A stretch of 64,000 nucleotides of DNA from Candidatus Latescibacterota bacterium. GTDB taxonomy: Bacteria > Latescibacterota > UBA2968 > GCA-2709665. The translations under genes and the position numbers were made by a program. Shown one piece after another: positions 17,729 through 54,397 of this stretch. Position 1 is the stretch's first letter. Each line of letters starts with the position of its first letter. Below the pieces are notes generated by a model. That model did no database searches and had not been told where the DNA came from. It was given only the letters and a program-made list of their open reading frames with translations. The DNA is taken from NCBI GenBank assembly GCA_965203805.1, contig OZ241917.1:2528001-2592000 (forward strand), written 5' to 3'.

Positions 17729-19446
17729 GGGCCTGTCTCTCCTTCCCTCACGACGATCTCCCTGTCCGCCGAAATGCTCCTGATCCAATCCACCGCGCCG
17801 CCGGGCCATCGCACCCTGAGCGAATCGACCGTTGGAGCCTGGCCGAGTCCGAAATGGAGACGGAAGTCGTTCTGCGACAGATAGCTTGATCCGCTCCGGA
17901 CCTCGCCGACCTGCGGCCGGCCGCCGGCCCAGACCGTCACCCGCGCGCCGATTCCGTTGCGGTTCGACAAACGCGGAGTGCCGGTTGAACCCACGGAATG
18001 CTCCCGCGCGGCGCCCACCAGCTTCACCCTCAGCCACCGGCTCCCGTTGCCGGCGTCGTTTCTCAGGAGGCGCCCGGCGCCGTTTACCGAAAGCACGAAC
18101 ACGTCCACGTCTCCGTCGTTGTCATAGTCTCCGAACGCGGCGCCGCGGCCCGGCTGAGGTATGGACAGGCCGTCTTCCACGTCGCGCGTCACGTCGACGA
18201 ACCGGCCGTCACCGGTGTTGCGGAACAGGATTGCCGGCTGCTTGTAGACGCTGCCAACCCGGTGGGCGTTGTCGAGCACGTGGCCGTGCACCATCAGGAG
18301 GTCGGGCCAGCCGTCATTGTCGTAGTCCAGAAAGCCGATTCCCCATCCCACGTGGGGGATCGTTGGGGGCCTGATGCCGGATATCGAAGAGATATCCGTA
18401 AATAGCCCGGCGCCTTCGTTGCGGTAGAGCCCGGCGCCCTCCAGCCGGAAATTGGTCACCGCCAGGTCCAGGCGGCCGTCGCGGTTGAAATCGCCGAAAT
18501 CCGCGCCCATGCTGGACTGCAGGTCGCCCGAGCCGCTGTAGCCCAGGCCCGAAAGAAGCCCTCTGTCCACAAAGCGCCCGTCGCCCCGGTTCAGGTAGAG
18601 GAAATTGGGCGTCATATCGTTGGCCACGAAGATATCCGGGGTCCCGTCGCCATCGACGTCGGCGCATGCCATGCCCATCCCCTTGCCGCCGGGATTGAGG
18701 ACACCCGCCCGCTCCGTCACGTCTGTAAACGTCCCGTTTCCGTTGTTGCGATACAGGCGGTCCGCGGCCCCCTTGAAGTTGTCGGGATGGGGGTAAAACC
18801 GCTCGCCGTCGGACGGGCTCGCGGAGCGGGAGGCGTAGGGCCTCAGCCTTCTCTCCGGGGAGTCAATCGCGTAGTCCACGTAGTTGGCCACGTAGAGGTC
18901 CAGCAATCCATCCGAGTCCACGTCCAGAAAGGAGCATCCCACGCTCCAGACGGCGTCCCCGGAGACGCCGGCGGGCGCGGCGACGTCCCTGAACGTGCCG
19001 TCTCCGTGATTCCGGAACAGGCTGTTCGGCCCGTAGCACGTCACGTAGAGGTCGTCGTACCCGTCGTTGTCGAAGTCTCCCGCGCAGACGCCCATGCCGT
19101 AGGCCGTTTCGCCCACGCCGGCGAACCGGGTCACGTCGGAGAAAACGCCCCCGCCGGCGTTCCGGTACAGCCGGTTCCGCGGGGGCGGGCCGGCGTAGCC
19201 GGGCAACGTCCCCCCGTTGACGGCGAATACGTCCAGCCAGCCGTCGTTGTTGTAGTCCAGAAACGCGACCCCCGATCCCATCGTTTCCACGAAGTACTTC
19301 TTGTCGGTCCCCCCGTGGACGTGCCGGAAGTCGATGCCCGACGACGCCGTCACGTCCACGAATCGCGGCGAATCCGCGCGCAACGCTTCGCTCCATAGGA
19401 TCATGAGCAGCAGGAATCCGCATACGACGCGAGCTGATTGGACCAT
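17725..19446 (-). CDS. CRTAC1-family protein (FG-GAP repeats plus ASPIC/UnbV domain)
   Basis: Repeated DYNNDGWLD/DFDNDGYDD motifs; SNRNGIGARV and SGSSYLSQND..LHFGLG. Confidence 0.92.
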   Translation of the reverse strand: MVQSARVVCGFLLLMILWSEALRADSPRFVDVTASSGIDFRHVHGGTDKKYFVETMGSGVAFLDYNNDGWLDVFAVNGGTLPGYAGPPPRNRLYRNAGGGVFSDVTRFAGVGETAYGMGVCAGDFDNDGYDDLYVTCYGPNSLFRNHGDGTFRDVAAPAGVSGDAVWSVGCSFLDVDSDGLLDLYVANYVDYAIDSPERRLRPYASRSASPSDGERFYPHPDNFKGAADRLYRNNGNGTFTDVTERAGVLNPGGKGMGMACADVDGDGTPDIFVANDMTPNFLYLNRGDGRFVDRGLLSGLGYSGSGDLQSSMGADFGDFNRDGRLDLAVTNFRLEGAGLYRNEGAGLFTDISSISGIRPPTIPHVGWGIGFLDYDNDGWPDLLMVHGHVLDNAHRVGSVYKQPAILFRNTGDGRFVDVTRDVEDGLSIPQPGRGAAFGDYDNDGDVDVFVLSVNGAGRLLRNDAGNGSRWLRVKLVGAAREHSVGSTGTPRLSNRNGIGARVTVWAGGRPQVGEVRSGSSYLSQNDFRLHFGLGQAPTVDSLRVRWPGGAVDWIRSISADREIVVREGETGP

Positions 19447-19520: not shown

Positions 19521-19550
19521 CGTAGGGGCGACCGGCCGGTCGCCCCTACA
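19521..19550. repeat. GTAG-type REP palindrome
   Basis: GTAGGGGCGACCGGCCGGTCGCCCCTAC; relatives at about 26388-26412 and 60092-60117. Confidence 0.7.
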
Positions 19551-19733
19551 AAAACCGGGCATCCGGGAACTGATATCACAAGTGCAAAACGACATTCGGC
19601 GGACGCGGTGTGACCGTCTACCGTCTGTCCGCCTTCGAGACCTACCCCCTTTCCCCCTTCCTGAAGGAAGGGGGGAACTGTCATCGCTTGATGGACTTCC
19701 TGGTTTTCTCCCCCTTTCCTTTAGGAGAGGGTC

Positions 19734-19764
19734 CCTGCCTGCCGGTGGTTTCTCGGCAGGCAGG
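19734..19764. repeat. CCTGCCTG..CAGGCAGG micro-palindrome (31 bp)
   Basis: cctgcctgccggtggtttctcggcaggcagg inside a purine/pyrimidine hairpin repeat. Confidence 0.75.
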
Positions 19765-19876: not shown

Positions 19877-21040
19877 TCACCGATAATTCAGCAGGGTATG
19901 GACCGCCCGTTTGAACACGTGGATCGCGCGTCTGGCGGAACCGTGCGGACCCGCCGTGGCGACGTTTGTCTCGTAGAATACACTTGGAATGCCCAGCCTT
20001 CGGGCCATCTGATAGCACATCGTATTCTCGCGATGCACGTTGGCTCTGCCGTGCGTGGACATCCCGTGGGTCTCCAGGCGCATCGTATCGCAGAGGGCCT
20101 GGTACAGCCGGGCGCGATCGGGATTCTCAAAGACCGGATCGACCACCTCGTACCATCCGTCGTAAGGGTATTCGCCGTTCTCCCGCCAGCCCACGAAGGC
20201 ATGGATATTCATCCACAGCGCCGGCCGGTCCGAGAGAAGCTTGTCCCACAGCAGGCGGCTCTCGCGGGCTTCGGGCGCGGCCGCTTCCGGGTCCTCTCCG
20301 AAAGCCCGGTACATGTCCAGTCCCTCGGCGTTGAACGCGTTTTTGCCCATAACGTTTCCGTCGGGATTGACCACGGGCAGGACGTCCACCTGCAACTGCT
20401 CCCTCAGGGAAACAGCATCCGGCACGAGGGACGTGATGAAATCCGCAATGCCCAGCATTCCCCACGTCCCCGAGAATTCGACCGCGTGCTGGCCGGCGAC
20501 GCACAGAATCCGTGGCTTGCCGGGCGTGCCGGCCCGGATTCCGGTGATGTCCCGCCCCTGCACCGATTTGCCAATGGTAAATGCCTCGCAGCGGTCCCCG
20601 CGTTCCTCCGCCAGCTTTCGGATCGTATCCCGGGTATCGCTGTAGGGCGCGGACCACGCGTTCGTGACTCGAATCGTCTCGTCCGCCTTCAGATTCAGGC
20701 GGATCAGCAGGGGTTCCTCCGTATTCCGGACGCGGTCGCGGTCGAGCGGCTTGAATCGGCCCTCGCCCGGGGACCCGACCCACACCGTGGTCGGCAGACC
20801 GGCCACGAATCCCTCAGGTCCGAATCGCGAGTCCGGCCACACTTCAACGGTCACGACCGATACCGGGCCGTCGTTCCGGACGTCAAAGCAGAAGTAGTAA
20901 CAGTAGGTCGCCTTGTCTCCGCCGACCTCCAGCCGAAACCGGTCGATTGCGATCTGCCGGATCTGCTTCGCGTTACCGCATTCGAAATCAGCCGCGATTG
21001 ATATCATCCCGATTCCCCCGCGGAGGCGCATAAACGCCAT
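19877..21040 (-). CDS. M14 zinc carboxypeptidase (cytosolic carboxypeptidase-like)
   Basis: ADFECGN N-domain, GKSVQGRDI, HxxE (QHAVE), PVVNPDG, third ligand NIH; may start at 21010. Confidence 0.85.
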   Translation of the reverse strand: MAFMRLRGGIGMISIAADFECGNAKQIRQIAIDRFRLEVGGDKATYCYYFCFDVRNDGPVSVVTVEVWPDSRFGPEGFVAGLPTTVWVGSPGEGRFKPLDRDRVRNTEEPLLIRLNLKADETIRVTNAWSAPYSDTRDTIRKLAEERGDRCEAFTIGKSVQGRDITGIRAGTPGKPRILCVAGQHAVEFSGTWGMLGIADFITSLVPDAVSLREQLQVDVLPVVNPDGNVMGKNAFNAEGLDMYRAFGEDPEAAAPEARESRLLWDKLLSDRPALWMNIHAFVGWRENGEYPYDGWYEVVDPVFENPDRARLYQALCDTMRLETHGMSTHGRANVHRENTMCYQMARRLGIPSVFYETNVATAGPHGSARRAIHVFKRAVHTLLNYR

Positions 21041-23151: not shown

Positions 23152-24087
23152 CTACCGTAACTGATAAGGACCCTGCCTGTCCGGCATTGCCGTCGGTTTC
23201 CCGATCGCCTCGGCCATCGCCCGGATATGGTAAGGCAGGGCCCCGCAGCAGGCGCCGATGAAACCGACGCCCATATCCCACGCGTCCCGTGCGTAGTCGG
23301 CCATCTCGCGCCGGGGCTGGTGGCGGAGCTCGAAGTGGACGCTGGAGCCCGAGGCGATCTCCCGGGTGTACTCCGCGCCGTTTTCCAGCACGTACGCCAG
23401 GGGTTGGGCGCAGATGGGCACGGACACGGCGCCCATCATCTTTCGAACGATATCCCGGTACATGTACCACGGCCGCCCGCAATTCACGCCCACCACGTCG
23501 GCGCCATGGTCCACGAGCCGTTTTGCGGCCTCGTCCGGCAGGTACCGGTCCGACGTATACTCCCCCGATTTGTACTCCAGCGTCACCACAACGGGCACCC
23601 CGGCGCTCTTGATGTACGGCATGCCCAGCGACGCTTCTTCCACGGAATAAAACGTCTCCACGATGAACAGGTCGACGCCCGCGTCGGTCTGCTGGCCCAC
23701 CCGCCGTTCGAAGAACGCCTGCGCCTCGCGCCTTTCGTTCGCGGTAATGGGCGACCGCCGCTGGTACGGTCCGACGCCGGCGGGGCTTAGTGTACCCGCC
23801 ACGAGACGATCCGGTCCGGCGGCCTCTCTTGCAAGCTCGACGGCGGTGCGGTGCAGTTCTTCATCCCGGTCCATCCGGCCCACGCCCCAGGTCATGGCCT
23901 GCAGCACCTCGGCGCCCGCCAGCGCGAACTCCCTGTGCAATTGGAGCAGACCCTCCGGGTGGTCCAGTACGGCCCAGGGCACCCCTTTTTCGAAATTGCC
24001 CAGGCATCTCCGTTCGAGCTCCAGATAGTAGCCGCCGTCGCCAAGTACCGGCCCGTCCTTCAGACGATCCAGAAAACCCGATGCCAT
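23152..24087 (-). CDS. Homocysteine S-methyltransferase family protein (BHMT-like)
   Basis: LGDGGY, HREFALAGAEVLQA, ETF, GVNC and GACCG..PYHIRAMAEA. Confidence 0.9.
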   Translation of the reverse strand: MASGFLDRLKDGPVLGDGGYYLELERRCLGNFEKGVPWAVLDHPEGLLQLHREFALAGAEVLQAMTWGVGRMDRDEELHRTAVELAREAAGPDRLVAGTLSPAGVGPYQRRSPITANERREAQAFFERRVGQQTDAGVDLFIVETFYSVEEASLGMPYIKSAGVPVVVTLEYKSGEYTSDRYLPDEAAKRLVDHGADVVGVNCGRPWYMYRDIVRKMMGAVSVPICAQPLAYVLENGAEYTREIASGSSVHFELRHQPRREMADYARDAWDMGVGFIGACCGALPYHIRAMAEAIGKPTAMPDRQGPYQLR

Positions 24088-24152: not shown

Positions 24153-24473
24153 CACGCCTTTTGTGCTTTTTGTGGCCAATGTCTCTTCAACCTGATTAAC
24201 GCGTAAAGGCAGTTGCCACAAAAGGCCTGCCTGCAGCGCAGGGCACTGCGCAGGCAGGCACAAAAACACAAAAGAAAAACTCAACCCCGGAACTGCTAAA
24301 TGGACACGCACGACGCCAGTATTCGGTCTGAGTGGCGTCGGTCCTGCAAGTGCCGTTTATTACCAGGAGTTGACATTGTGTTGGCTCCGCTTTTCGGGAG
24401 AATGTGGCAAACTATGACGTGCTCCCGTGACACGTTCTTCACCTTCTGTGCCTTTTGTGCTTTTTGTGGCCAA
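24153..24473. repeat. Cluster of GCCACAAAA(G/A)GCACAAAA repeats, one carrying a 33-bp micro-palindrome (24226-24258)
   Basis: ttttgtgcttttgtggccaat near 24160 and 24453; inverse gccacaaaagg|cacaaaaacacaaaag split by cctgcctgcagcgcagggcactgcgcaggcagg. Confidence 0.75.
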
Positions 24474-24474
24474 T

Positions 24475-25716
24475 TCAACGGTCTTCTTTTTTCGAGTTGA
24501 GGTCAATAGGAAAATCGCCGGCTTTTCGCGTTTCCGACGGCCTGAAATCCGGGACCTCCAGGCACGCGTTCCCCTGTTCCACGGACTGAACGGCCACAAT
24601 CGCCGGCGCCGTCAGTTCCGCCGACCGGTAGACGTTCAGCGGCGGGTCCGAGTCGTTCAGAATGGCGTCCAGGAAAGAAGAAAGCGCAAAGTAGTCCATA
24701 TTCCCGTGCCCGCTGCCCCTGGCCGCCTCGGGAAGGTCGTCCGGGGAGAACTCCCACGCCGCTTCCCGCATGGATTCCTCTCCGGAACGCTCCAGCCAGA
24801 TCTTCGGTGTGTCCACTCCCCGGGGACCGCCGTATATCTCCGCGGACCGGGCGGTCTCCACCTTTCCCTTCGTCCCTTCCAGGTGCCACCAGTGATGGTC
24901 CCGGGGCGTCGCGTACGTAAACCCGACCGCCATCCGGATGATCGTATCCTTTTCGGTGTGCATCAACGCCACCTCGATATCCGAGGCGGGAATCCCTTCA
25001 TAATAGTAGCTTTCAGGCCGCGTCCCCATGCACGTGACCCGCGTCACCCGGTCATCCAGAACCGTCAGGATGGGGCCCAGGTCGGTGGCCATGTACAGAA
25101 TCGGGTGCGGAAACCAGTTCCACATTCTGCTCTTCGCGGCCCTCGGATGATCCTCGGCGGCATCCAGATCGATCCGTTCGCCCGTTTCGGAATCGACCCA
25201 GAACCGGTCCGGCGTCATCCCGTGAAGATACTGCCCCTGGGCGAAGATGACATGGCCGAGTTCGCCCTCCCGGACCAGGCGGCGCCATGCCTTCACAAAC
25301 GGGTGGTACATCACCTGTTCCGCCATCTGAAACTTCAGGCCGCTGCGCTCCACCGCCACCACGACCCGCCATAGGTCGTCCATGTCGTACGTCAGCGACA
25401 CCTCGCACGCCGCGTGCTTCCCCGCTTCCATGGCCCGGCAGATCAGGTCCGGCTGATCGTGCGGCGCGGTCACGATCGCCACCGCGTCGATATCCGCCTT
25501 CGCCAGCATCTCCTCATAGTCGGTAAAGCACGCGATATCGGGATCGCCGGCCTCGCGGTACGCCTGCGCCACAAGCGCATCGACCCGGTCGCACAATGCC
25601 GTCACGCGGCACGTCTCGATCCGCAGCAGGTTCTTCATCCACGACAGCCTCCCCCGCGGGCCCAGACCTACGATTCCGATTCGAACCGGTTTCTTTTTGG
25701 GCATCAGATGCCTCAT
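24475..25716 (-). CDS. Gfo/Idh/MocA oxidoreductase, GH109-like
   Basis: GIVGLGPRG Rossmann motif, GKHAACEV, C-terminal GSGHGNMDY resembling GH109 GGHGG. Confidence 0.85.
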   Translation of the reverse strand: MRHLMPKKKPVRIGIVGLGPRGRLSWMKNLLRIETCRVTALCDRVDALVAQAYREAGDPDIACFTDYEEMLAKADIDAVAIVTAPHDQPDLICRAMEAGKHAACEVSLTYDMDDLWRVVVAVERSGLKFQMAEQVMYHPFVKAWRRLVREGELGHVIFAQGQYLHGMTPDRFWVDSETGERIDLDAAEDHPRAAKSRMWNWFPHPILYMATDLGPILTVLDDRVTRVTCMGTRPESYYYEGIPASDIEVALMHTEKDTIIRMAVGFTYATPRDHHWWHLEGTKGKVETARSAEIYGGPRGVDTPKIWLERSGEESMREAAWEFSPDDLPEAARGSGHGNMDYFALSSFLDAILNDSDPPLNVYRSAELTAPAIVAVQSVEQGNACLEVPDFRPSETRKAGDFPIDLNSKKEDR

Positions 25717-25997
25717 TTCCGTTTCATTGACCTTCTGGCTGACCTTTCCCGCCCTGCCGTCTCACGTCTTCCCGCCGTTCGAAGAACGACGCTGCTCAGA
25801 TACCGCAACCGGAACGGAAGGACAGGCTGGTCCCCCTACGTTTTGTCCGTAGTATACTGACAGGTTGCCTGCCTGCGAACAAACTTCCTTTGGAACTAAC
25901 CTCTGGTAGAACAAGAGCTTAATCTCGCCCACAAACTCTTATTTTCTCTTCGTCCTTTTTCTTGTACGCCCAAGAAAAAGGACCAAAAAGAACGGCG

Positions 25998-26030
25998 CCT
26001 GCCTGCCGAGCAGGCTTCGGCGCAGGCAGG
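25998..26030. repeat. CCTGCCTG..CAGGCAGG micro-palindrome (33 bp)
   Basis: cctgcctgccgagcaggcttcggcgcaggcagg. Confidence 0.75.
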
Positions 26031-26261
26031 CCGCTCGGCGCGGGGCCGGTTTTTCCGTGAACCTGCTCAGTGGCGGAAATGGCAATTGGTTGCCCTGTCA
26101 CCGGACCAGTCCGTATCGAACGAAGTTGCTGGACGGAATAGCACGGAAAAACCCCCCACACCTCAACCGGGCGGCAAGTTGATACACCGGTAAGGACAAT
26201 CGCACGGATTCACGGTTCTGCCGCTGATCACTGTCTCTGACGTCCCCTGGGAGCGAGGGCA

Positions 26262-26357
26262 CCTGCCTGCGCAGTGCCCTGCCTGCCTGTGCGTGTACGC
26301 CTGCCTGCGCAGTGCCCTGCGCTGCAGGCAGGCACGCAGACAGGCGCTGCAGGCAGG
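26262..26357. repeat. Triple-nested micro-palindrome (33+30+33 bp)
   Basis: Outer 26262-26281/26345-26357, middle 26282-26299/26333-26344, inner 26300-26332; rejoined outer equals inner. Confidence 0.85.
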
Positions 26358-26547
26358 TCCTGCCCTCGACGCGCCGTCGCTGCATTCGTAGGGGCGACTT
26401 TCAAAGTCGCCCGGATTACGGCGCTGACGTCAATGGTTCGGTCCTGGTTCAAGCTGATGGCTGACCGCTGATAGCTGCCTTTTGCTGCTCTTCAAAGAGA
26501 AACGGCAGCCGGATATCAGGCTGCCATTTATTGATCGGAAAATGCGG

Positions 26548-27166: not shown

Positions 27167-27535
27167 TTACGATCGTGGACCGACCAACCAGACTGTTTCT
27201 TCCAATAGGACAATGGCGAAACGGCCTCCGCCTTCGCACAGCGTCTGCCATTCCTCAGCAGTGTAGACAAGTAGATCGGTGGGTACGACCAGGGTGTGTG
27301 TCGGCCAGGACCGCGCACGCTCGAAAAATGGAGCGGGACTGTTCTCCACCACCGCCACCAGGTCGAGATCACTGCCGAAACTCGCGTCCCCTCGAGCATA
27401 GGATCCGAAATATCCCAATGCCAACAGGTCCCCGCGCTCTTCAGACTGATCCGTGCACCAGCGGCGAAGCCCTTCAATTACAGTTTCACTCCCCGGCCAA
27501 CGCTTGACGGACGAAGTTGAGGATGTCACCGGCAT
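27167..27535 (-). CDS. Minimal nucleotidyltransferase (MNT antitoxin)
   Basis: FGSYARGD...SDLDL motif; overlaps HEPN gene. Confidence 0.88.
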   Translation of the reverse strand: MPVTSSTSSVKRWPGSETVIEGLRRWCTDQSEERGDLLALGYFGSYARGDASFGSDLDLVAVVENSPAPFFERARSWPTHTLVVPTDLLVYTAEEWQTLCEGGGRFAIVLLEETVWLVGPRS

Positions 27536-27875
27536 ATCTCAATCCTTGATCGCTCTGCAACGGTCCGTAGTGTTCGTAGGGCGCCCCTTCAGGGTGCCCG
27601 TTCGGGTAGCGTGTCGATACGTAGTAGTTGTCGAGGGCCCGCCCTTGCTCGACAATCTGCTCCGGCGGCGCTTCAGGGAGTTCCGACAGGAGGCGGGCGA
27701 CAACGTGGCCCCATGCCTCCTGTCCCATTGAGAGATGGAGCGCTTTGACGGCTTTTTCAGCGGCCTGGTGAGCGGCGAAGCAGGCCCAGTCGTGACGGCC
27801 GTCATTGCGTGAAGCCGTTGCCTGTTCAAGATCGTGCTCCGCCTGGGCGAGCCAATCCCGCCATCGCTGCGCCAT
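27486..27875 (-). CDS. HEPN domain protein
   Basis: DWLAQAEHDL, WACFAAHQAAEKAVKA, WGH, LDNYYVSTRYP. Confidence 0.9.
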   Translation of the reverse strand: MAQRWRDWLAQAEHDLEQATASRNDGRHDWACFAAHQAAEKAVKALHLSMGQEAWGHVVARLLSELPEAPPEQIVEQGRALDNYYVSTRYPNGHPEGAPYEHYGPLQSDQGLRYAGDILNFVRQALAGE

Positions 27876-28175
27876 CCTGCCTCTCCATCCCTGGTTGCAC
27901 ATTGTCCGGATGCGTCTGAATCCGGCGGCCCATGCCGCGCCGATTTCCGATCCTGCGATAGCCCCCTGGTGCATAAAAATGAAAATATCCCTAATCGAAG
28001 ACTTAAGCAAGGGGAAATGGTTACGCGGCCGCCGTCCGTCGGAAGATAAAGCATTGACGTCGGGTTTGCCGATATTTAACTTATCGACTACAATCAGGTA
28101 GCGCGCCACGCTCAGGGGATTCTGCGCGCCTCCGCCCTCGAAAGTGGAGAAATTGAACTCGGAAGGAGATTGTTT

Positions 28176-28406
28176 ATGAGATCATTCGAGAGGATCACCA
28201 TCGATCCAGCGGTCATGGGCGGAAAGGCATGCATTCGTGGTCTGCGCGTTACGGTTGGTACCGTCATCGGGCTTTTGGCAGCCGGACGCTCACGTGACGA
28301 AATCCTCAAAGCATATCCCTACCTTGAACGAGAGGATATCGACCAATCCCTGGCCTACGCCGCGTGGCGGCTCGAGGAGAGGGAGGTACCGCTCTCTACA
28401 TCATGA
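28176..28406 (+). CDS. DUF433 antitoxin
   Basis: RITIDPAVMGGKACIRGLRVTV...EILKAYPYLEREDI. Confidence 0.92.
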   Translation: MRSFERITIDPAVMGGKACIRGLRVTVGTVIGLLAAGRSRDEILKAYPYLEREDIDQSLAYAAWRLEEREVPLSTS

Positions 28407-28771
28407 GACCGTTGCTCCTACTTGACATGAACCTTTCGCCAGCGTGGGTGGAGGTGCTGAAAAAGCGCGGATGGCTTGCTGTCCACTGGAGTGCTGTAGG
28501 CGATCCACACGCGAGTGACCGGGAGATTATGGATTGGGCTGCGGAGCACGAATACGTCGTTTTTACCCACGATCTGGACTTCGGCACAATGCTTGCGTTG
28601 TCGCATGCAAACGGGCCCAGCGTGTTGCAAATCCGCGCCGAGGACATTTTGCCCGATCATCTGGAATCCTCAGTCATCGCTGCCCTGAACCAGCACGAAC
28701 GTGACCTGGCTTCGGGCGCTCTTGTGGTCGTCGACGAAAGCCGGAGTCGAGTCCGGGTGTTGCCAATTTGA
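28403..28771 (+). CDS. DUF5615 PIN-like toxin
   Basis: LLLDMNLSP, ASDREIMDWA, VFTHDLDFG; ATGA overlap with DUF433. Confidence 0.9.
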   Translation: MRPLLLLDMNLSPAWVEVLKKRGWLAVHWSAVGDPHASDREIMDWAAEHEYVVFTHDLDFGTMLALSHANGPSVLQIRAEDILPDHLESSVIAALNQHERDLASGALVVVDESRSRVRVLPI

Positions 28772-29521: not shown

Positions 29522-29941
29522 TTGCTCACGCTGGTGCATGAGCGGGCATTACTCGCCACGACCAACCAAGATACCGACCAAGTTACCGGACAAGATAAGT
29601 CATTGAAAAATAAGGGGATAGGTCAAGACACCCTACAAGACACCCAACAAGATACCCCACAAGATACCGACCAAGTCACTGACCAAGTCGAGCAACTGGT
29701 CGCTGTACTCACTGGAGAGATGAGCCGTGCCAGTATCCAGGCACGATTGGAACTCAAAGACCGACCCCATTTCATCGAGTCGTACCTGAAGCCTGCCCTG
29801 GAGGCCGGATTGATTGAAATGACGCTCCCGGACAAGCCAACGAGCCGCCACCAGCGCTACCGCCGCACTTCTAGAGGCGAGACATTCGTTGAACAGACCA
29901 AGGGAAAAACGAAGAATGAAGAATCGCGGGATGGAGAATAG
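29522..29941 (+). pseudogene. C-terminal wHTH fragment of Fic/ATP-binding-type protein with 12-bp tandem repeats
   Basis: QDTx/QVTD repeats, then YLKPALEAGLIEMTLPDKPTSRHQRY; no N-terminal catalytic domain. Confidence 0.65.
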
Positions 29942-32187: not shown

Positions 32188-32226
32188 AAAAGCCCCTGGG
32201 CTGCTCATCACAGCCCAGGGGCTCTT
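32188..32226 (-). terminator. Rho-independent terminator
   Basis: AGCCCCTGGGCTG-loop-CAGCCCAGGGGCT stem followed by TTTT on the minus strand. Confidence 0.7.
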
Positions 32227-32810: not shown

Positions 32811-33038
32811 TCAGATTTCGGCCGCGTGTCGCTCGTGCTGCCTGATAGGTGACCCCGATGAACGATTTCATCGGGGTTTTTTCTGTGTCGCATAATACGA
32901 CGAATGTGGCGCGAAATGCGTCATTTTCTGTTGGGGCCGCATTGACCAACAATGAAGATTGTCGTATATTGCGTCATTTATAGAATAACATGTATAGGTC
33001 GATCGAATAAGGCGAGTTTAAGAAATAGGACGTTCGCA

Positions 33039-35804
33039 GTGACTGACATTGTCCGCACTCCGGAACAAAAGGCACGCGCAAAGATCGATGCGAAGTTGAA
33101 TCAGGCTGGCTGGCAGGTGCAGTCGAAGAACGAGATCGACTTCAGCGCCGGCCTCGGGATCGCCGTGCGTGAGTATCAGACGGATATCGGACCGGCCGAC
33201 TACGTACTATTCGTTGACAGGGAAGCTGTGGGCGTCGTCGAGGCAAAGTCGGAGGAGTGGGGCCACAAGATTACGACCGTCGAAAATCAGTCTGGCGCTT
33301 ATGCTGCTGCCGAGTTGAAATGGGTGAACAATAAAGAACCCCTGCCGTTCGTCTATGAAACGACGGGTGTGTTGACGCGATTCACCAACGGTCGCGACCC
33401 GAAACCCCGGTCCCGCGAGGTCTTCAACTTCCCCCGGCCAGACACGATACGTGAATGGCGCACGCAGAGCGCTTCGCTCCGTGGCCGGTTGCAACGGCTA
33501 CCGGAACTCGACCCTGTAGGTCTCCGTGAGTGCCAGATCGGCGCTATCGAAAAACTGGAATCATCTTTCAAGGATAATCGCCAACGCGCGCTCGTACAGA
33601 TGGCCACAGGCTCGGGCAAGACCTACACAGCAATCACCTCGATCTACCGGTTGCTCAAATACGCAAACGCCAGGCGGATCCTGTTTCTGGTAGATACACG
33701 CCATCTTGGCGAGCAGGCTGAGCAGGAATTCATGGCCTACGTTCCCAGTGACGATAACCGTAAATTCACCGAACTCTATAACGTACAGCGTCTCAAGTCT
33801 TCCTTCGTCGCTCAGGACAGTCAGGTCTGCATCAGCACCATCCAGCGTATGTATTCGCTGCTGAAGGGCGAGGAGATCGACGAAACCGCGGAAGAAATTA
33901 ACCCGGCGGAGTTGGTGCAGCCAGGTCAACCGATGGAGGTCGTCTACAACGAGAAGATTCCGCCTGAGTTTTTCGACTTCATCATCATTGACGAGTGCCA
34001 CCGGTCCATCTACAACCTCTGGCGCCAGGTCCTCGACTACTTCGACGCCTTCCTCATTGGTCTCACTGCCACGCCTGACAACCGCACCTACGGATTCTTC
34101 AAGAAAAACGTCGTCAGCGAATACACTCATGAACAAGCCGTCGCGGACGGCGTCAACGTCGGTAACGAAGTCTACGTAATCGACACTGAACGGACAAAAC
34201 ACGGCGGCCGGATCAAGGCCAATCAGCATGTCGAAAGACGCGAACGCCTCACGCGGCGCAAGCGCTGGGAGATTCAGGACGAGGATCTTGACTATACCAG
34301 ACAAGAACTGGATCGCACCGTTGTCAATCCCGATCAGATCAGAACGGTCGTCCGTACGTTTCGAGACAGTCGGACGGAGATATTTCCTGGCCGCGAAGAG
34401 GTGCCCAAGACACTGATTTTCGCCAAGACGGATAGCCACGCCGACGACATCATCCAGACGGTGAGGGAGGAATTCGACGAAGGCAATGAGTTCTGCAAGA
34501 AAGTCACATACAAATCCGAAGAGGACCCGAAATCCGTCCTCGCCCAATTCCGAAACGGCTATTATCCACGCATTGCTGTCACCGTGGATATGATTGCGAC
34601 GGGTACCGACGTGCGACCACTCGAATGCCTGCTATTCATGCGTGATGTGAGGAGCCGCAATTACTTTGAGCAGATGAAGGGCCGTGGGACACGTATCCTG
34701 GAACAGGACGATCTCAAAAAGGTCTCACCCTCTGCCGTCAGCGGAAAGACTCACTACGTTGTTGTGGACGCCGTCGGCGTCACGAAATCGCTCAAGACCG
34801 CCAGCCAGCCGCTCATCACGAAGCCGTCAGTTCCACTTAAGGATCTTGCAATGGGCGTGATGATGGGCGCCCACGATGAGGATACGGTGGGCTCACTCGC
34901 CGGCCGCCTCGCAAGGCTGAACCAGCAACTCGATTCAAGTGAACTGGAACGTATCCGTGAAAAAGCAGGCGGTATCGACCTTACCAGGATCGTCGGCGAT
35001 TTGGTGGCAGCCATCGACCCCGACCGGATTGACGCGAAGGCCCGCGAAATCGAAGTTGTGCCTGAGCATGCCGATCCGTCATCCCCCGCCCTCTTCCAGG
35101 CGCGGGAAGAGCTGGTACGCAAAGCGGCCAGGGTGTTCAACGGCGAGTTGATTGAACTGATCGACTCGATCCGCCGCGACAAAGAACAGACCATCGACAA
35201 CGAAGGTCTTGATACCGTGCTCCGCGCGGAATGGGAAGGCGACGCGCACAAAAATGCCGAGGCCGTTGCGAAAGACTTCCGGGAGTATCTCGAAGCCAAT
35301 CGCGATGAAATCGAAGCCCTTGCCATCTTCTACGCCGAACCGTACAGACGAAGAGACCTTACATTTGAGATGATCCGCGAGGTTTTGGAAAAGCTCAAAA
35401 CTGATCGGCCTCGACTCGCCCCTTTTCGTGTTTGGCAGGCATACTCCGTGCTCGATGACTACAAGGGCGGGCAACCGGCTAGTGAACTGACCACGCTCGT
35501 GGCTTTGATCCGCCGAGTCTGCGGCTGTGATAGCAAGCTCTCGACCTATTCGGATACGGTGCACCGCAACTTCCAGAATTGGATTATGACACACCACAGC
35601 GGCAGCGGAGAGAAATTCAACGAAGATCAAATGGACTGGTTGCGCATGATCCGTGACCACATCACCACCTCGTTTCATCTGGACCGCGACGATCTGGACA
35701 TGGCTCCATTCGATAGCAAGGGTGGCTTGGGGCAGATGTACAAGCTCTTCGGCGACCGAATGGATGATGTGATTGATGAGTTAAACGAGGCACTGGCGGC
35801 ATGA
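33039..35804 (+). CDS. hsdR: Type I restriction enzyme R subunit (EcoEI-like)
   Basis: ADYVL..VEAK nuclease, MATGSGKT, DECHRS, GLTATP, QMKGRGTR; GTG start downstream of TTGACC-N17-TATATT. Confidence 0.93.
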   Translation: MTDIVRTPEQKARAKIDAKLNQAGWQVQSKNEIDFSAGLGIAVREYQTDIGPADYVLFVDREAVGVVEAKSEEWGHKITTVENQSGAYAAAELKWVNNKEPLPFVYETTGVLTRFTNGRDPKPRSREVFNFPRPDTIREWRTQSASLRGRLQRLPELDPVGLRECQIGAIEKLESSFKDNRQRALVQMATGSGKTYTAITSIYRLLKYANARRILFLVDTRHLGEQAEQEFMAYVPSDDNRKFTELYNVQRLKSSFVAQDSQVCISTIQRMYSLLKGEEIDETAEEINPAELVQPGQPMEVVYNEKIPPEFFDFIIIDECHRSIYNLWRQVLDYFDAFLIGLTATPDNRTYGFFKKNVVSEYTHEQAVADGVNVGNEVYVIDTERTKHGGRIKANQHVERRERLTRRKRWEIQDEDLDYTRQELDRTVVNPDQIRTVVRTFRDSRTEIFPGREEVPKTLIFAKTDSHADDIIQTVREEFDEGNEFCKKVTYKSEEDPKSVLAQFRNGYYPRIAVTVDMIATGTDVRPLECLLFMRDVRSRNYFEQMKGRGTRILEQDDLKKVSPSAVSGKTHYVVVDAVGVTKSLKTASQPLITKPSVPLKDLAMGVMMGAHDEDTVGSLAGRLARLNQQLDSSELERIREKAGGIDLTRIVGDLVAAIDPDRIDAKAREIEVVPEHADPSSPALFQAREELVRKAARVFNGELIELIDSIRRDKEQTIDNEGLDTVLRAEWEGDAHKNAEAVAKDFREYLEANRDEIEALAIFYAEPYRRRDLTFEMIREVLEKLKTDRPRLAPFRVWQAYSVLDDYKGGQPASELTTLVALIRRVCGCDSKLSTYSDTVHRNFQNWIMTHHSGSGEKFNEDQMDWLRMIRDHITTSFHLDRDDLDMAPFDSKGGLGQMYKLFGDRMDDVIDELNEALAA

Positions 35805-37339
35805 CTGCGATCAAGCAACTTCCGATCGGCTGGGCCACTACGACTGTCGGTGAAGTCGCTACTTACCAGAATGGGCGCGCGTTCAAACCATCCGAATGGG
35901 GAACCGCAGGGTTGCCTATTATTCGAATACAAAATCTTAACGATACAAATGCCAACTACAATTTCACGGATGAACAACATGAAGAACGGTTCAAAGTCAA
36001 GAGTGGAGACCTATTGTTTGCCTGGTCCGCATCACTAGGTGCGTATATCTGGCAAGGCCAAGACGCTTGGCTAAACCAACATATCTTCAGAGTTGATCAT
36101 TTGAAGATGATAGACCGGCTGTTTCTTTACTATGCACTGACAAATATAACCGCCGATCTATACGCCAAAGCTCATGGTTCGGGTATGGTTCACGTAACGA
36201 AGGCAAGATTCGAAGAGACAAAGATATCGTTGCCCCCTTTAGTTGAACAACGCCGCATCGTAGCCAAGATCGAGGAATTGCTCTCCGAATTGGATAAGGG
36301 CATCGAGAGCCTGAAGGCGGCGCGGGCGAAGCTCGATGCATACCGCCAGGCCGTTCTCAAGCACGCCTTCGAAGGCAAGCTCACGGCGCAATGGCGCGAA
36401 GAGAACAAAGACAATCTTGAGACGCCTGAGCAATTGATCGCTCGCATCAAGCGGGAGCGAGAAGCCCACTATGAGCAGCAGTTAGCCGAATGGAAAAAGT
36501 CCGTTGATGAATGGGAGGCTATTGGGAAGCCCAGCAAAAAGCCTAGCAAACCAATGATGGCAAAGAAGCTGCCGCCACTGACGAAAGCGGAGCTGACGGC
36601 GTTGCCAGAACTACCGAAGGGATGGAGATGGGTGCAGTACGGAACCCTTACCGAGATTGTGAGGAACGGGATTTCGCGAAAACCAACGGGAGAAAAAGGG
36701 GAGAAAATTTCCCGGATTAGCGCAGTAAGACCAATGAATTTCAATATGGACGATTACCGTTACATAGACAACCATGATGTCGAACTTGACGACTATCTGC
36801 TCCGAAAAGGTGATGTAGTATTTACAAGGTATAATGGATCGCGGCAGTTCGTTGGGGTGTGTGCCGAATACCGCTCCGACGAGAAGCGAGTCTTTCCAGA
36901 CAAACTCATACAAACGAGAGTCTTCTCAGGAACTGTGAGCTCTAGTTTCATCGAAAAGGCCGCACACTCTGGGGCCTCACGAAGATTTATTGAGTCTAGG
37001 ATTAGGACTACAGCGGGACAATCTGGGGTCTCCGGCTCGGACATAAAGTGCCTCCCTATTCCACTCTGTCCGAAAGCAGAGCAACGTGCGGTCGTTAAGC
37101 TTCTTGAATCAAAACTCGCTACTATTGACCGACTCGAAACTCAGATCGAAGAGAACTCTCGCAGAGTCGAAGCCTTGCGCCAAAGCATTCTCAAGAAAGC
37201 CTTTGCAGGCGAACTCGTTCCGCAGGATCCTCACGACGAACCAGCCTCAGTTCTACTTAGTCGAATCAGGACCGAAAGAGAGAAGGTCACACGGAAGAAC
37301 CAATCCACAAAAACAAAGAAAGGAAGGACGCCTACATGA
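35801..37339 (+). CDS. hsdS: Type I RM specificity subunit
   Basis: Two TRDs, LPPLVEQRRIV, LRQSILKKAFAGELVPQDP. Confidence 0.93.
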   Translation: MTAIKQLPIGWATTTVGEVATYQNGRAFKPSEWGTAGLPIIRIQNLNDTNANYNFTDEQHEERFKVKSGDLLFAWSASLGAYIWQGQDAWLNQHIFRVDHLKMIDRLFLYYALTNITADLYAKAHGSGMVHVTKARFEETKISLPPLVEQRRIVAKIEELLSELDKGIESLKAARAKLDAYRQAVLKHAFEGKLTAQWREENKDNLETPEQLIARIKREREAHYEQQLAEWKKSVDEWEAIGKPSKKPSKPMMAKKLPPLTKAELTALPELPKGWRWVQYGTLTEIVRNGISRKPTGEKGEKISRISAVRPMNFNMDDYRYIDNHDVELDDYLLRKGDVVFTRYNGSRQFVGVCAEYRSDEKRVFPDKLIQTRVFSGTVSSSFIEKAAHSGASRRFIESRIRTTAGQSGVSGSDIKCLPIPLCPKAEQRAVVKLLESKLATIDRLETQIEENSRRVEALRQSILKKAFAGELVPQDPHDEPASVLLSRIRTEREKVTRKNQSTKTKKGRTPT

Positions 37340-38823
37340 ACACCGCTCCCATCGTCTCCAGAGTGTGGAACTTCTGCACCACCCTTCGCGATGACGGGGT
37401 GAGCTATGGGGACTATCTGGAGCAGCTCACCTATTTAATCTTCCTCAAAATGGCCGATGAGTACGGCAACCCCCCCTACAATCGAGATGTCGGCATACCG
37501 GCAGACCTTAACTGGCAGAGCTTGAAGTCAAAAAGGGGCTCGGAACTCGACGGCCATTACGCCGCCCTCCTCCGCGAACTCGGGACGAAGACCGGCATGC
37601 TTGGTCAGATCTTTACCAAGTCCCAAAACAAGATCCAGGACCCTGCAAAGCTATACAGCTTGGTCGACATGGTAGATGACACCGAGTGGGTCACCTTGGA
37701 TGCCGACGTAAAGGGCGACATTTACGAAGGGCTTCTTGAGAAGAATGCGGAGGATACCAAGTCAGGCGCAGGACAGTATTTCACGCCTCGAGCACTCATT
37801 CGTGCAATGGTCGAGTGTGTACGCCCCGAACCGGGCACGCTAATCGCCGACCCGGCCTGCGGTACAGGTGGATTCTTTCTCGCCGTATACGACTTCATCA
37901 CCAACGCGGACAATTTCAACCTGGACAAGGATCAGAAGGCGTTCTTAAAGCACAATGCATTTCACGGAAACGAGATCGTCGCCAATACCCGCCGTCTGTG
38001 CCTGATGAACATGTTCCTCCACAACATTGGGGAGATCGACGGTGGTGTACCCATATCGCCCTATGATTCGCTGGTGGCCGATTCAGGCGACAGGTTTGAC
38101 TATGTGCTGGCAAATCCGCCCTTCGGAAAGAAGAGCTCCATGAGCTTTACGAACGAGGAGGGTGAACAGGCAAGGGACGACCTGACCTATAACCGACAGG
38201 ATTTCTGGGCGACGACCTCGAATAAGCAACTCAATTTCGTGCAGCACATCCGCACAATGCTTAAGACCACTGGCAGAGCCGCGGTCGTGGTTCCGGACAA
38301 CGTCCTGTTCGAAGGCGGAGCCGGCGAGACGGTCCGCAAGAAGCTGCTGGACAACACCGACCTGCACACGATCCTCCGCCTGCCGACGGGCGTGTTCTAC
38401 GCACAAGGCGTCAAGGCCAATGTGATCTTCTTCGACAATCACGAAGCCAGTCCATCACCATGGACGAGGAAGGTGTGGTACTATGACTACCGAACCAATA
38501 TTCACCACACACTGAAAAAGAAGCCGATGCGCTTTGAAGATCTGTCTGAATTCATCGAGTGCTACAATCCGAAAAACCGGCATCAGCGCAAGGCGACCTG
38601 GGACGAAAACGACGCATCGGAAGGCCGTTGGCGAAGCTACAGCTACGAGGAGATATGCGCGCGCGACAAGACCAGCCTCGACATCTTCTGGCTCAAGGAC
38701 AAGAGCCTGACCGACCTGGACAACCTGCCCGAACCCGACGAACTTGCCGAAGAGATCATCGAGAATCTCGAAGCTGGGCTCAACAGCTTTCGCCAGGTTC
38801 TGGCGGAATTGGGGACGCGGTGA
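37336..38823 (+). CDS. hsdM: Type I RM N6-adenine methyltransferase
   Basis: GQYFTPR, DPACGTGGF, NPPF. Confidence 0.95.
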   Translation: MNTAPIVSRVWNFCTTLRDDGVSYGDYLEQLTYLIFLKMADEYGNPPYNRDVGIPADLNWQSLKSKRGSELDGHYAALLRELGTKTGMLGQIFTKSQNKIQDPAKLYSLVDMVDDTEWVTLDADVKGDIYEGLLEKNAEDTKSGAGQYFTPRALIRAMVECVRPEPGTLIADPACGTGGFFLAVYDFITNADNFNLDKDQKAFLKHNAFHGNEIVANTRRLCLMNMFLHNIGEIDGGVPISPYDSLVADSGDRFDYVLANPPFGKKSSMSFTNEEGEQARDDLTYNRQDFWATTSNKQLNFVQHIRTMLKTTGRAAVVVPDNVLFEGGAGETVRKKLLDNTDLHTILRLPTGVFYAQGVKANVIFFDNHEASPSPWTRKVWYYDYRTNIHHTLKKKPMRFEDLSEFIECYNPKNRHQRKATWDENDASEGRWRSYSYEEICARDKTSLDIFWLKDKSLTDLDNLPEPDELAEEIIENLEAGLNSFRQVLAELGTR

Positions 38824-38899: not shown

Positions 38900-40282
38900 A
38901 TGGGAGTGCTTGTGAATACGGCTGGACATCATGGAATCACAGACATTGATGTGCTTGCGCTGTCTGTGCGTGACAACGAGTCGCGCCGACTGATCGGTGA
39001 AGCGATAACCGCCTATCGCGGGAGCGCTTTGCGGTCTGCAATAGTGTCAACATGGATTGCTGTTGTGTATGATATCATTGCCAAGGCTCGAGAGTTGACC
39101 GCTCAAGGCGAAGCGGCTTCCCGCGTGCTCGTTCATGATTTGGACAATGCGATTAAGGCTGGTGGCAACCGAGAGATGCAGAAGTTTGAATCTGAGTTGT
39201 TAATCAAGGCAGTCAGAGATCTTCAGCTTCTTGCTCCGCATGAATACACGGCCTTCGAGCGGCTACAGCGAGATCGGCATCTTTGTGCACATCCTGCCTT
39301 TGTCGTCAAAGATGAGCTCTATCAGCCGTCACCTGAACTGGTTAGGTCACATATCGTCCACGCCCTAGAATACCTACTGGTGAAGGCTCCGCTGCAGGGG
39401 AAAAGTGCAATTGCCCGATTCGATGCTGATCTACTTGGCTCGTCTTTCCCAACGACAGCGGAGGAAATAGGCAGTTTTATTCGCACGAGGTATTTGGACC
39501 AGGCGAAGGATGTCCTAGTGATCAATCTCCTCAAGGCGATAGTCAGTGCGCCATTTGGTGCTGAAAACGCCAAATATGCAAGTAAGATCCGGACGCTCGC
39601 CCTGACGCTACGCGAGATCGCGAACGCCGAAACGCGGATCTTTGACACGGAGATGCCCAGCATCATAGCTCGGAAATTCGAAAGCATTGAAGAGGACGTC
39701 CTACTCCGCATCTGTCCGTTCATTGCATACGAGCCGCGCATTTGGGACTGGCTTAAAGAATCCGACCGCATCCGTACCAGACGACTTCTTGAGACTGCTG
39801 ATACGGAAACCCTAAAATCCTGCTGTGCGTTCGACGCAATTGTAGCCGATCCCGTGTCGAAAATCCTTTCTGACCGGTTTGATACCTTCGAAAAAGCCGT
39901 ACAGATCAGCATTATCGCAGAGCACCCAAGCAAGGAATTCGTCTGCAAGGGAATTGAACTCTACTCCGATGCCGTAAGTTACCGTCATGCCGAAGAACTC
40001 GGTCGGTCAGTTATTTTGTCCCTCGCTGAGTACTTCGATAGCGCAGATGTTGAAGCGGTGCTGAAGGCCGCCAGCGAAAATGGGCAAATCTGGAATGCGC
40101 ATGGGACGCCCGACATCCTTGAACGACTGTTCGATGAGACCGTTTCTCTTCTTAGCGAAAGCCGACCTCACTGGGAAGATTTCGTTCGCGGTCAGATAGA
40201 CCGCGCCGATGGCGACTTTTCGGACCGCTATAGATATCCTGGATTGCAGAAGAGACTCGACTGGAATGCGGAGAAAACCTGA
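38900..40282 (+). CDS. Hypothetical protein with HEPN-like N-terminus
   Basis: EAITAY...RSAIVSTWIAV helix and RHLCAH (Rx4H); helical C-terminus. Confidence 0.7.
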   Translation: MGVLVNTAGHHGITDIDVLALSVRDNESRRLIGEAITAYRGSALRSAIVSTWIAVVYDIIAKARELTAQGEAASRVLVHDLDNAIKAGGNREMQKFESELLIKAVRDLQLLAPHEYTAFERLQRDRHLCAHPAFVVKDELYQPSPELVRSHIVHALEYLLVKAPLQGKSAIARFDADLLGSSFPTTAEEIGSFIRTRYLDQAKDVLVINLLKAIVSAPFGAENAKYASKIRTLALTLREIANAETRIFDTEMPSIIARKFESIEEDVLLRICPFIAYEPRIWDWLKESDRIRTRRLLETADTETLKSCCAFDAIVADPVSKILSDRFDTFEKAVQISIIAEHPSKEFVCKGIELYSDAVSYRHAEELGRSVILSLAEYFDSADVEAVLKAASENGQIWNAHGTPDILERLFDETVSLLSESRPHWEDFVRGQIDRADGDFSDRYRYPGLQKRLDWNAEKT

Positions 40283-40792
40283 GTAACTGATAATCTAACG
40301 TTCCGCGTTAGACGTCGCGTGCTTGTGCTCTCTTAACGCGAACACCAGCACTGTAATTTTCGGCGTGTTGTCTTTGATGGGTTCATTCGATCAAGTTGGC
40401 GTCAAGACTGATGCGAGGGGCTCCGTTGACTGTTCCGCCCCGGTCTGTATTGAATTCATTTATTCGACAAATCAATTTATCCGCAATCTATCGACACGCG
40501 TATCCGAAGAACCGTCCAAGGCAGGTTGAACAGTGCGCGCTACAGGTAGCGTGCCGAATCAACTGTTGGGCCGACTCCGACGGTCTTACTTCGAAGTAGG
40601 CATTGTAGCTCTACACCGATGGTCAAACTTACCGAGAGAACTGAAAGGCTCGAGGGTGCCTCCCTCGGGGTTTTTTAATTTGATGGTGAAAACCCTTAAC
40701 GGGTCTTTCAGATTTAATTCATCAACATTTCGATACGCATTCTTAACACGCGAATTTTGGTATGCACTGTTTTATTGTGGGGCGGTCGAACG

Positions 40793-46054: not shown

Positions 46055-46183
46055 AGGGGAATTGATTCAGGTTGATTGTTGGCAATTACAGGTAGACAGT
46101 TGTTCGGGAAGTACCTGTCGATTTTTCTACTCATGAGGGTATCGACGCACCCGTTCGGTCGCGGGAAAACTCAAGGAGAAACC

Positions 46184-48300: not shown

Positions 48301-48680
48301 GGCCAATGCTCGAAGTGGGGCACGCGCGGACGATGAGCCCAAAGTGCGATGGATCCGTCGCAACAGATTTTCAAGAGGAGGATCGGCATGCGAGCGATAA
48401 TTCTGTTGATTTGCACAATTCAGGTTTTCTGTAGTACAATCAAAGCGCAGCATCCCGACCCGCATAGGTTTCAACAAAGAGGCTTCATCAATTGGAATTG
48501 GCGAAAAATGCTGGTTTTCGCAGACATACTACAATCATAAGCCGTATTTTTCCGTGGAGTCATTAGAGGGTATACAAGGTCAGGAGGTCCGCGTTGTCAC
48601 CTTTGATAATCCGAAATGCATGCGCGACGATCTTTCAGGTTTTGACACCGATGTTTCACAAATGCTGAATCATCGAATGA

Positions 48681-50583: not shown

Positions 50584-50836
50584 ATGATCAATTTGAGGAT
50601 ATCGAGTTGGTATTTGCAAACATACGTAAAAAGAGATGCAAAATTCGATGTCGACAACCTCCGTCCGAACGGAAAATACGAAGCCAGAGGCAAGTGCATT
50701 CAGTCAAAGACATACCCATCGAAAGGGATCGCGGTTGATTACGTTACTAACGGTCGAAGTATCACACATGTCTATCACACAATGGCACTGGCCGGGTGCG
50801 GAAGTGCCAAGTAGGGGAATCGTGCAAGTAACGTCA

Positions 50837-54190: not shown

Positions 54191-54397
54191 ACCGCCCGGA
54201 CCGATCCCTCCGGTTTCGTCGCCATCCTGCCGGTGGCAGTGACACTGGAGCGGCACGGTCTGGGAGATGTGCGCAGTGTATAGCAACATCCACTTTCCCA
54301 ACCGAACCCGGTATCAAATTTCGTCTCTATTACACTGGGCAGATCAGGACCCATTGCGATGACGTGCGTGCCAGTTCAACAATTGAAAGAAGGAACG

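Follow-up and report, generated by a model that had tools for sequence, protein, structure and literature searches.

How small can a piece of DNA be and still move about a bacterial genome? This question is raised by a palindromic stretch of 96 bp at positions 26262-26357 of a 64,000-nucleotide piece of a Candidatus Latescibacterota genome (contig OZ241917.1, positions 2,528,001 to 2,592,000), here called the window; positions given without a locus name refer to it. A preliminary description of this DNA had parsed the stretch as a 33-bp hairpin unit split by a 30-bp unit, itself split by a second 33-bp unit, and had proposed that such units are very small mobile elements. Our analysis suggests that they likely form a family of miniature mobile elements, palindromic and non-coding, which measure 19-37 bp and are restricted to one lineage; we use the name CCTG units for them. 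Units of this size have no protein-coding capacity, and the hairpins rank among the smallest mobile-looking DNA elements.

The nest at 26262-26357 proved to be exact down to the last base. A script check parsed it into three levels, i.e., a 33-mer split by a 30-mer that is in turn split by an identical 33-mer, since rejoining the two parts of the outer unit (26262-26281 and 26345-26357) gives a sequence identical to the inner unit at 26300-26332. The inverted copy that had been noted at 24226-24258 is the exact reverse complement of the same sequence, which brings the number of identical 33-mers in the window to three. The subtype of the 30-mer at 26282 is found again in three of the related loci introduced below (L003, L005 and L058).

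The nest itself sits in the loop of another hairpin, a host unit resembling the REPs (repetitive extragenic palindromes) of other bacteria. When the nest is removed in silico, the flanks match a repeat unit that is present uninterrupted twice in locus L020 (~19071-19095 and ~19204-19228); as far as the sequences tell, an empty site for the nest is thus known at the level of its repeat family. In L001, the copy of this repeat (20680-20733) is interrupted by a different hairpin unit, six bases away. The repeat family consists of GGGAGCG followed by a GGGCA-TCC-TGCCC hairpin, and the two copies in L020 form an inverted pair ~110 bp apart, in the manner of a REPIN. Both copies of the GGGAGCG repeat in element-bearing genomes are interrupted by CCTG units, at differing positions.

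Filled and empty sites

Comparisons of filled with empty sites were provided above all by an insertion sequence (IS) in the right part of the window, which carries two units within its transposase gene (Table 1). A genome-collection search with the transposase family of this IS yielded 61 related loci, nearly all of them from Candidatus Latescibacterota metagenome-assembled genomes (MAGs), and 19 IS copies, including that of the window, were aligned at the DNA level. Four hairpin insertions occur in this alignment, each of them in one copy and missing in the other 18, and each exact and without duplicated bases. The same picture emerges from the proteins. Most close homologues of the 538-aa transposase are 508 aa long, and the closest of them, P0002 (508 aa; 91% identity by BLASTP, 96% over aligned columns), lacks precisely the stretches of 10 and 20 residues that 49275-49304 and 50179-50238, respectively, encode. 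In other homologues, protein alignment placed hairpin-encoded inserts of 9-11 aa at no fewer than seven further positions (at least seven), and two homologues carry nested inserts: P0014 has an 11-residue insert within the 9-residue insert of P0010, and P0012 has a similar 20-residue composite.

An empty site was also found outside the IS. Searching the window against the 61 loci with blastn gave nine short matches beyond the IS, one of which showed L007, from a different MAG, to run uninterrupted through the point occupied by the unit at 25998-26030, the junction again being exact and free of duplication. The matching blocks (25942-26165 in the window, ~12455-12663 in L007) are identical at 57 of 58 positions at their start and share further colinear patches. 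A tblastn search of the loci with four flanking proteins found no orthologous neighbourhoods. Restoration of a reading frame adds a further case: in L005, a DDE_5 transposase gene (8781-9720) is split by a 25-bp unit (9008-9032) and also harbours an in-frame 27-bp unit (9339-9365), and taking out only the 25-bp unit turns two open frames (108 and 253 aa) into a single 321-aa frame.

Seven exact insertion/empty comparisons or frame restorations were obtained in total, namely four in IS copies, one intergenic, one at the level of a repeat family and one based on a frame. The preliminary description had deduced the lack of target duplication from excision on paper and had proposed alignment with related MAGs as a way to find precise empty sites. 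Such sites exist: real ones for the units at 49275, 50179 and 25998, and one at the repeat-family level only for the 96-bp nest. The six genic insertions seen at the DNA level all lie in transposase genes, none being present in the other coding DNA examined, and five of the six have a length divisible by three and keep the reading frame. Small as the numbers are, this length bias fits selection against disruptive insertions.

Hairpin anatomy and distribution

Across the window and five of the loci, the units share conserved ends of 8-9 bp (CCTGCCTG[C/T] ... GCAG[G/A]CAGG) that are mutually reverse complementary. The preliminary description had already remarked on conserved ends and variable cores; both features hold, and the variable cores turn out to be themselves self-complementary. 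The usual fold comprises an outer stem of 7-8 bp, a one-sided bulge of 2-3 nt, an inner stem of 3-6 bp and a loop of 3-5 nt, with fold energies of -6.9 to -14.4 kcal/mol. Whole-unit folds have z below -2.5 in 9 of 12 sequences, and for 11 of 12 units shuffled versions of the core fold less well than the core itself. Because pairing is kept even in the variable core and the asymmetric bulge is conserved, a unit probably functions in single-stranded form, as a hairpin whose structure is recognised by a dedicated enzyme.

Subtypes are common to several genomes, as the core of the unit at 49275 recurs in L027 with two differences. The 33-mer of the nest, moreover, equals a 19-mer of L003 plus a central 14-bp palindrome, which is why larger units may grow from smaller ones, a lead at this stage rather than a result.

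These sequences are far too abundant in the window to be explained by chance. The end motifs CCTGCCTG and CAGGCAGG occur 14 and 13 times, respectively, where base composition predicts ~1.5. A pattern of paired ends gave eight matches against none in 100 dinucleotide shuffles, i.e., far beyond chance, and a scan for CCTG...CAGG hairpins gave 12 against a mean of 0.32 and a maximum of 2 in 50 Markov shuffles, although two of the 12 (at 32195 and 52847) are unrelated hairpins.

With a relaxed pattern, elements were found in the window and in 5 of the 61 loci, which come from three MAGs: two each in L001 and L003, three in L005 and one each in L027 and L058. This corresponds to ~12 units in the 64-kb window and nine in the ~107 kb of the five loci, figures to be set beside the high copy number per genome of REP/REPIN systems. 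The other 56 loci (~1.17 Mb), including several complete Latescibacterota chromosomes with the same IS family, have none, and the family therefore appears to be restricted to a lineage. The literature searched, with most subscription journals outside it, holds no description of the motif or of such elements in Latescibacterota.

Target rule, mover and rival explanations

What do the insertion points have in common? In the window and loci together, 18 of 20 junctions fall between a purine and a pyrimidine (R↓Y, the arrow marking the insertion point; binomial p ~2e-9 against 0.25), and 12 of the 20 are G↓C. The eight of nine purine-pyrimidine junctions counted earlier for the window stand as they were. 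A purine occupies position -1 in 37 of 40 half-sites, while positions -8 to -2 show no consensus and no longer target motif was found. Six sites have an empty counterpart, either a real one or one at the level of a repeat family; two of these sites are G↓C and the others A↓A, G↓T, A↓C and A↓T.

Units are thus inserted whole and exactly, without target bases being duplicated or lost, at R↓Y points of which G↓C is the most frequent. Such insertions persist between genes, in dispensable transposase genes, in other repeat hairpins and in other units, in the last case giving rise to nests, and within genes they survive mostly when their length is a multiple of three, thereby adding 9-11 residues. 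The units would move in single-stranded form, as hairpins acted on by an enzyme that recognises their structure and whose gene lies elsewhere in the genome.

In the search for this enzyme, Pfam analysis of 108 window open reading frames (ORFs; 39 + 69) and of 83 ORFs from L001, L003, L005, L027 and L058, which together make up only a few per cent of the element-bearing genomes, detected no HUH/Y1, RAYT (REP-associated tyrosine transposase), serine recombinase or tyrosine recombinase. It did detect DDE transposases, one group II intron reverse transcriptase (L001) and one HNH protein (L003). The transposase of the host IS was considered as the mover and rejected: the mutually inverted ends of the IS start with TGAGTCC and are unrelated to CCTGCCTG, and the IS is flanked by 4-bp direct repeats (ATGA at 48677-48680 and 50584-50587). 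The core of the preliminary description, that of a very small non-autonomous element inserted without target duplication by a mover not encoded in the window, is thus supported.

The leading candidate for the mover is a HUH/Y1 enzyme of the RAYT- or IS200-like kind, a tentative attribution that our analysis makes conceivable rather than probable. The one-sided stem bulge of the units resembles the irregular hairpins read by RAYT-type enzymes. IS200/IS605 elements likewise insert through hairpin-dependent single-strand steps and without duplication; their two ends, however, differ from each other and bear subterminal hairpins, and insertion takes place 3' of a 4-5 nt target that is fixed. The seven exact comparisons described above share this freedom from duplication with IS200/IS605 and the palindrome-associated transposable elements (PATEs), whereas a CCTG element consists in its entirety of a single symmetric hairpin, with R↓Y as the sole conserved feature of its target.

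The nearest known kind is the REP class. REPs are described, in the available part of one account, as GC-rich imperfect palindromes of 20-40 bp that are mostly extragenic, sometimes intragenic and then adding short peptides, and that are thought to be mobilised in trans (PMC3733652). CCTG units, at 19-37 bp, match the size of such imperfect GC-rich palindromes (~20-40 bp). In contrast to REP/REPIN-RAYT systems, however, they lack an unpaired GTAG or CGTC tag, their ends being fully symmetric (CCTG...CAGG); they are inserted singly (at 49275, 25998 and 24226, and in L005 and L027), their composites being nests rather than spaced inverted pairs; and no RAYT, which in such systems is a single-copy gene usually flanked by the repeats, was detected among the 108 window and 83 locus ORFs. 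Because both the GTAG/CGTC tag and the doublet organisation are missing, we do not file the family under REPs; the most fitting description is that of an untagged, REP-like variant made up of a single hairpin. The same account, again in the part available, considers the classical mobile REP unit to be a doublet and lists CGTC-type REPs without a known transposase (PMC3733652). The CCTG family bears on the question of how single REP-like hairpins spread.

Canonical GTAG-tagged REP-like hairpins (GTAGGGGCGAC...) are present in the window as well, one as a perfect 28-bp palindrome at 19522-19549 and the other as a single stem-loop at 26388-26413, 31 bp from the nest. They suggest a separate REP/RAYT-type system in this genome. 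The CCTG units are thus a second family, distinct from these hairpins and coexisting with them.

Other hairpin or miniature elements are more distant. Miniature inverted-repeat transposable elements (MITEs) of the DDE type combine terminal inverted repeats with a target-site duplication of fixed length, whereas CCTG units have no such duplication at sites with an empty counterpart, unlike the host IS with its 4-bp duplications. Among organellar elements, the repetitive hairpin-forming elements reported from sponges are comparable to CCTG units. The GC clusters of yeast mitochondria are hairpins (GC42 = 42 bp) that multiply in the genome and merge or shuffle into composites, by a mechanism given as unknown in the portion of the source at hand (PMC4478555); they carry short flanking direct repeats (AG/ACT; same source and portion), whereas CCTG units have none and reside in a bacterial chromosome rather than an organelle. 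Rickettsia palindromic elements (RPEs), finally, are palindromic repeats found in frame in protein genes, with RPE-4 and RPE-6 treated as intragenic REPs and the classical RPE-1 called a longer palindromic insertion in the part of the review available (PMC3733652); their termini and phylum differ from those of CCTG units.

Several points weigh against the interpretation of CCTG units as mobile hairpins. Mobility would follow from comparative insertion patterns, and the sole signs that the family may be active are the three identical 33-mers and the nesting. An identical insert occurs at an identical site in IS copies that are ~20% diverged, yet is missing from the closest copy; to explain such shared-site inserts, either IS copies have recombined, or insertion into the site has recurred, or excision has been precise. 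The inserts form a mosaic on the IS tree that does not discriminate between inherited and recurrent origin. Both the 4-5 nt target of IS200/IS605 and the GTAG/CGTC tag of REPs are absent. For the cores, the Fisher combined p of 3e-9 overstates independence, as the 12 tested include related subtypes. Last, several target sites resemble hairpins by eye, but two tests of an insertion preference for hairpin targets were negative: folding energy of 20 reconstructed targets compared to 1200 random sites (p = 0.09) and enclosure by a short-span pair (8/18 against 49% in controls). A third test, chosen post hoc, was nominally significant and at most suggestive, a perfect stem of >=5 bp surrounding the junction in 6/18 cases against 12% overall (p = 0.016) or 14% of intergenic controls (p = 0.035), both uncorrected.

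Some transposase homologues themselves look mosaic: for example, P0009 and P0014 have the N-terminus of P0003 and otherwise follow P0010 (alignment A1). Either IS copies have recombined with one another or some metagenome assemblies are chimeric.

Which other explanations could produce these patterns? One, which we regard as unlikely, is an undescribed minimal class of transposable element, in which a single hairpin is cut or copied and pasted blunt between any purine and pyrimidine by a mover that is neither a RAYT, an IS200-type Y1 enzyme nor of the IS607 type. Were this true, self-insertion would build larger structured palindromes, and in-frame insertion would add short peptides to proteins.

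A serine transposase akin to that of IS607 is an improbable alternative. It would move the unit as a double-stranded mini-circle with the joint ...CAGG↓CCTG... and exchange strands over the shared GC dinucleotide, leaving no duplication. IS607 itself, to judge from the part of the source available, requires no terminal inverted repeats, leaves the target without duplications and depends on no more than a dinucleotide (GG) common to its termini and target (PMC6188088), and both the G↓C at 12 of 20 junctions and the 1-nt boundary ambiguity at two of the four IS empty sites agree with such a scheme. A strict 2-bp identity rule, however, would not allow the four other junctions among the six sites that have empty counterparts; with G↓C at only two of the six, strict GC-core serine recombination fits poorly. 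IS607 ends also contain, in the same part of that source, several direct-repeat binding motifs over longer end segments (PMC6188088), too long for 19-37 bp, and the element is kilobase-sized. At CCTG units, by contrast, junctions vary (12/20 being G↓C) and the self-complementarity of the hairpin is conserved, which a double-strand site would not need in its core; nor was a serine recombinase detected among the ORFs of the window and the five loci.

We consider it hardly likely that no dedicated transposase is involved and that end-joining or repair fills DNA breaks with short hairpin DNA, be it copies that were excised or some other hairpin species present in abundance. Filler capture fits exact, duplication-free insertion, the near-absence of a target motif and the lack of an enzyme nearby. 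End-joining usually leaves small deletions or additions, though, and all seven comparisons are exact; the R↓Y rule and the conservation of ends and bulge architecture across three genomes point to specific recognition instead. We know of no source of free hairpin DNA.

Very little speaks for non-mobile units, i.e., conserved host sites for protein binding, RNA stabilisation or termination that have spread only through gene conversion and vertical descent. In favour of this view, seven of nine window sites are intergenic (the other two lie in the DUF772 transposase ORF), recombination does occur, as is evident from the mosaic of inserts across IS copies in their tree, and REP-type hairpins have known host functions according to the available part of the review (PMC3733652). 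A host function would nonetheless account for retention rather than origin, and it is implausible for units at >=10 different positions in transposase frames and inside one another; in addition, no T-run was seen 3' of the window units, and 56 of the 61 related loci are devoid of them. On sequence comparison, the filled/empty pairs appear to have largely refuted this explanation. An assembly or sequencing artefact, including an artefactual nest, is least credible of all: palindromes are difficult for some assemblers, but three other MAG assemblies contain elements of the same types, five of the six genic insertions keep the frame, and the elements and two further nests recur in transposase homologues listed from ENA and JGI sources, with nesting in other deposited homologues arguing against an artefact peculiar to this assembly.

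If CCTG units are mobile hairpins, as we think likely, they offer clean natural experiments, in which a hairpin of 27-33 bp can be seen filled and empty at base resolution in several places and is found nested in itself. They would set a lower bound for mobile DNA of ~8 bp ends plus a hairpin and provide a route by which genes gain insertions of 9-11 residues. R↓Y is a simple target rule that any candidate enzyme must reproduce, and the search for the mover in Latescibacterota becomes a defined phyletic-profiling problem.

Family members and their setting in the window

All relatives of the nest listed in the preliminary description (at 19734, 25998, 49275, 50179 and 61714, with short ones at 61401 and 63794) were recovered where it had placed them (Table 1). 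The nest parses of the composites at 50179-50238 and 61714-61774 are plausible sequence readings, other parses being possible.

Table 1. CCTG units and their hosts in the window and in aligned IS copies of two related loci (arrow, insertion point)
Feature	Location	Strand	Length	Junction	Remarks
Host IS (IS1182/IS5-like)	48681-50583	+			DUF772 transposase ORF 48793-50409, 538 aa (Pfam)
Host REP-like hairpin unit of nest	26248-26368				flanks 26248-26261 and 26358-26368
Outer unit of nest, left part	26262-26281		33 bp (whole unit)		script identity with inner unit when joined to right part
Middle unit of nest, left part	26282-26299		30 bp (whole unit)		CCTGCCTGT...GCAGACAGG subtype
Inner intact unit of nest	26300-26332		33 bp		fold -14 kcal/mol: 7 bp + 3-nt bulge + 6 bp + 4-nt loop
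Middle unit of nest, right part	26333-26344		30 bp (whole unit)		sequence parse
Outer unit of nest, right part	26345-26357		33 bp (whole unit)		script identity
Third copy of 33-mer, inverted	24226-24258		33 bp		intergenic, between ORFs 23152-24087(-) and 24475-25716(-)
Unit in conserved non-coding block	25998-26030		33 bp		empty counterpart in L007
Unit with perfect 11-bp stem	19734-19764		31 bp	C↓G (the sole one)	intergenic; fold -14.1 kcal/mol, z -6.2
Unit in IS transposase gene	49275-49304		30 bp	acag↓taag	in frame, adds LPAPDTRQAG; 1-nt boundary ambiguity
Composite in same IS gene	50179-50238		60 bp	acga↓cgca	in frame, adds 20 aa; outer + degenerate inner unit
Composite	61714-61774		61 bp		at least two units, including short CCTGCC...GGCAGG at 61722-61744; parse ambiguous; fold z only -1.0
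Short relative	61401-61423		23 bp	G↓C	CCTGCC...GGCAGG ends; membership uncertain
Short relative	63794-63818		25 bp	G↓C	membership uncertain
Unit in IS copy	L005 10258-10284		27 bp	ccca↓acta	
Unit in IS copy	L027 10882-10911		30 bp	ttcg↓cagg	1-nt boundary ambiguity

Several sequences next to the units are worth recording. The block at 25942-26165 that hosts the 25998 unit is non-coding and measures ~200 nt, and its minus strand shows terminator-like hairpins; a small RNA or leader not described so far may be encoded here. Rfam assigned no family to it or to its L007 counterpart, the only hits being sub-threshold, chance-level ones in L007. Rfam gave no match at gathering score anywhere in the window, in which no tRNA or tmRNA was found either. 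A solitary left-end motif, CCTGCCTGCG, stands at 25868-25877 with no matching right end within 40 bp and may be the remnant of a unit or a chance match, given that ~1.5 chance 8-mers are expected. In the IS gene, CCTGCCTG is native at 50154-50161, 25 bp upstream of the 60-bp insertion, and is conserved in other IS copies.

The two parts of the window differ in character. The left 28 kb (~63% G+C) holds ordinary chromosomal genes, among them by Pfam an Opp-type ABC transporter, an FG-GAP/ASPIC protein, homocysteine methyltransferases and a GFO/IDH/MocA oxidoreductase, whereas the right 36 kb (~51% G+C) is a defence and toxin-antitoxin island. The defence genes of this island (28000-64000) comprise a Type I restriction-modification system (32952-38823), PD-T7-3 (38900-40282), a Schlafen/AlbA_2 protein (40757-42109), a Dsr2-like SIR2 protein of 1269 aa (42245-46054), an Mrr type IV enzyme (46076-47101) and two PDC-M19A/DUF488 proteins (54359-55354 and 61941-63011). 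Toxin-antitoxin-like genes encode HEPN (27486-28109), DUF433 with a PIN-like protein (28170-28771), a Fic-like C-terminal domain (29522-29941), SocA/Panacea (55592-56158), HicA (59540-59866) and Gp49 with an HTH protein (60218-60909).

Other repeats are shared with the related loci. A GC hairpin repeat of the CCCCCTTCC...GGAAGGGGG type at 19646-19678 is 87% identical to L002, and one of the CTCCCCCTCAAGGGGGAG type at 61777-61794, together with the block downstream, is 77% identical to L020, this homology beginning exactly at the right edge of the 61714-61774 composite. An IS3-like HTH_Tnp_1 fragment at 58220-58720 has ~72% DNA identity to a stretch of L008 and represents a second IS family in common with Latescibacterota MAGs. 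The family of the host IS and the shared non-coding blocks likewise suggest that the window belongs to Latescibacterota. Finally, the transposase family of the host IS has received an insertion of another kind in L022 (~10450-10590; alignment columns 696-837), an AT-rich, MITE-like sequence of 141 bp whose first bases, CTTAAC, are repeated directly after it, as would fit a target duplication.
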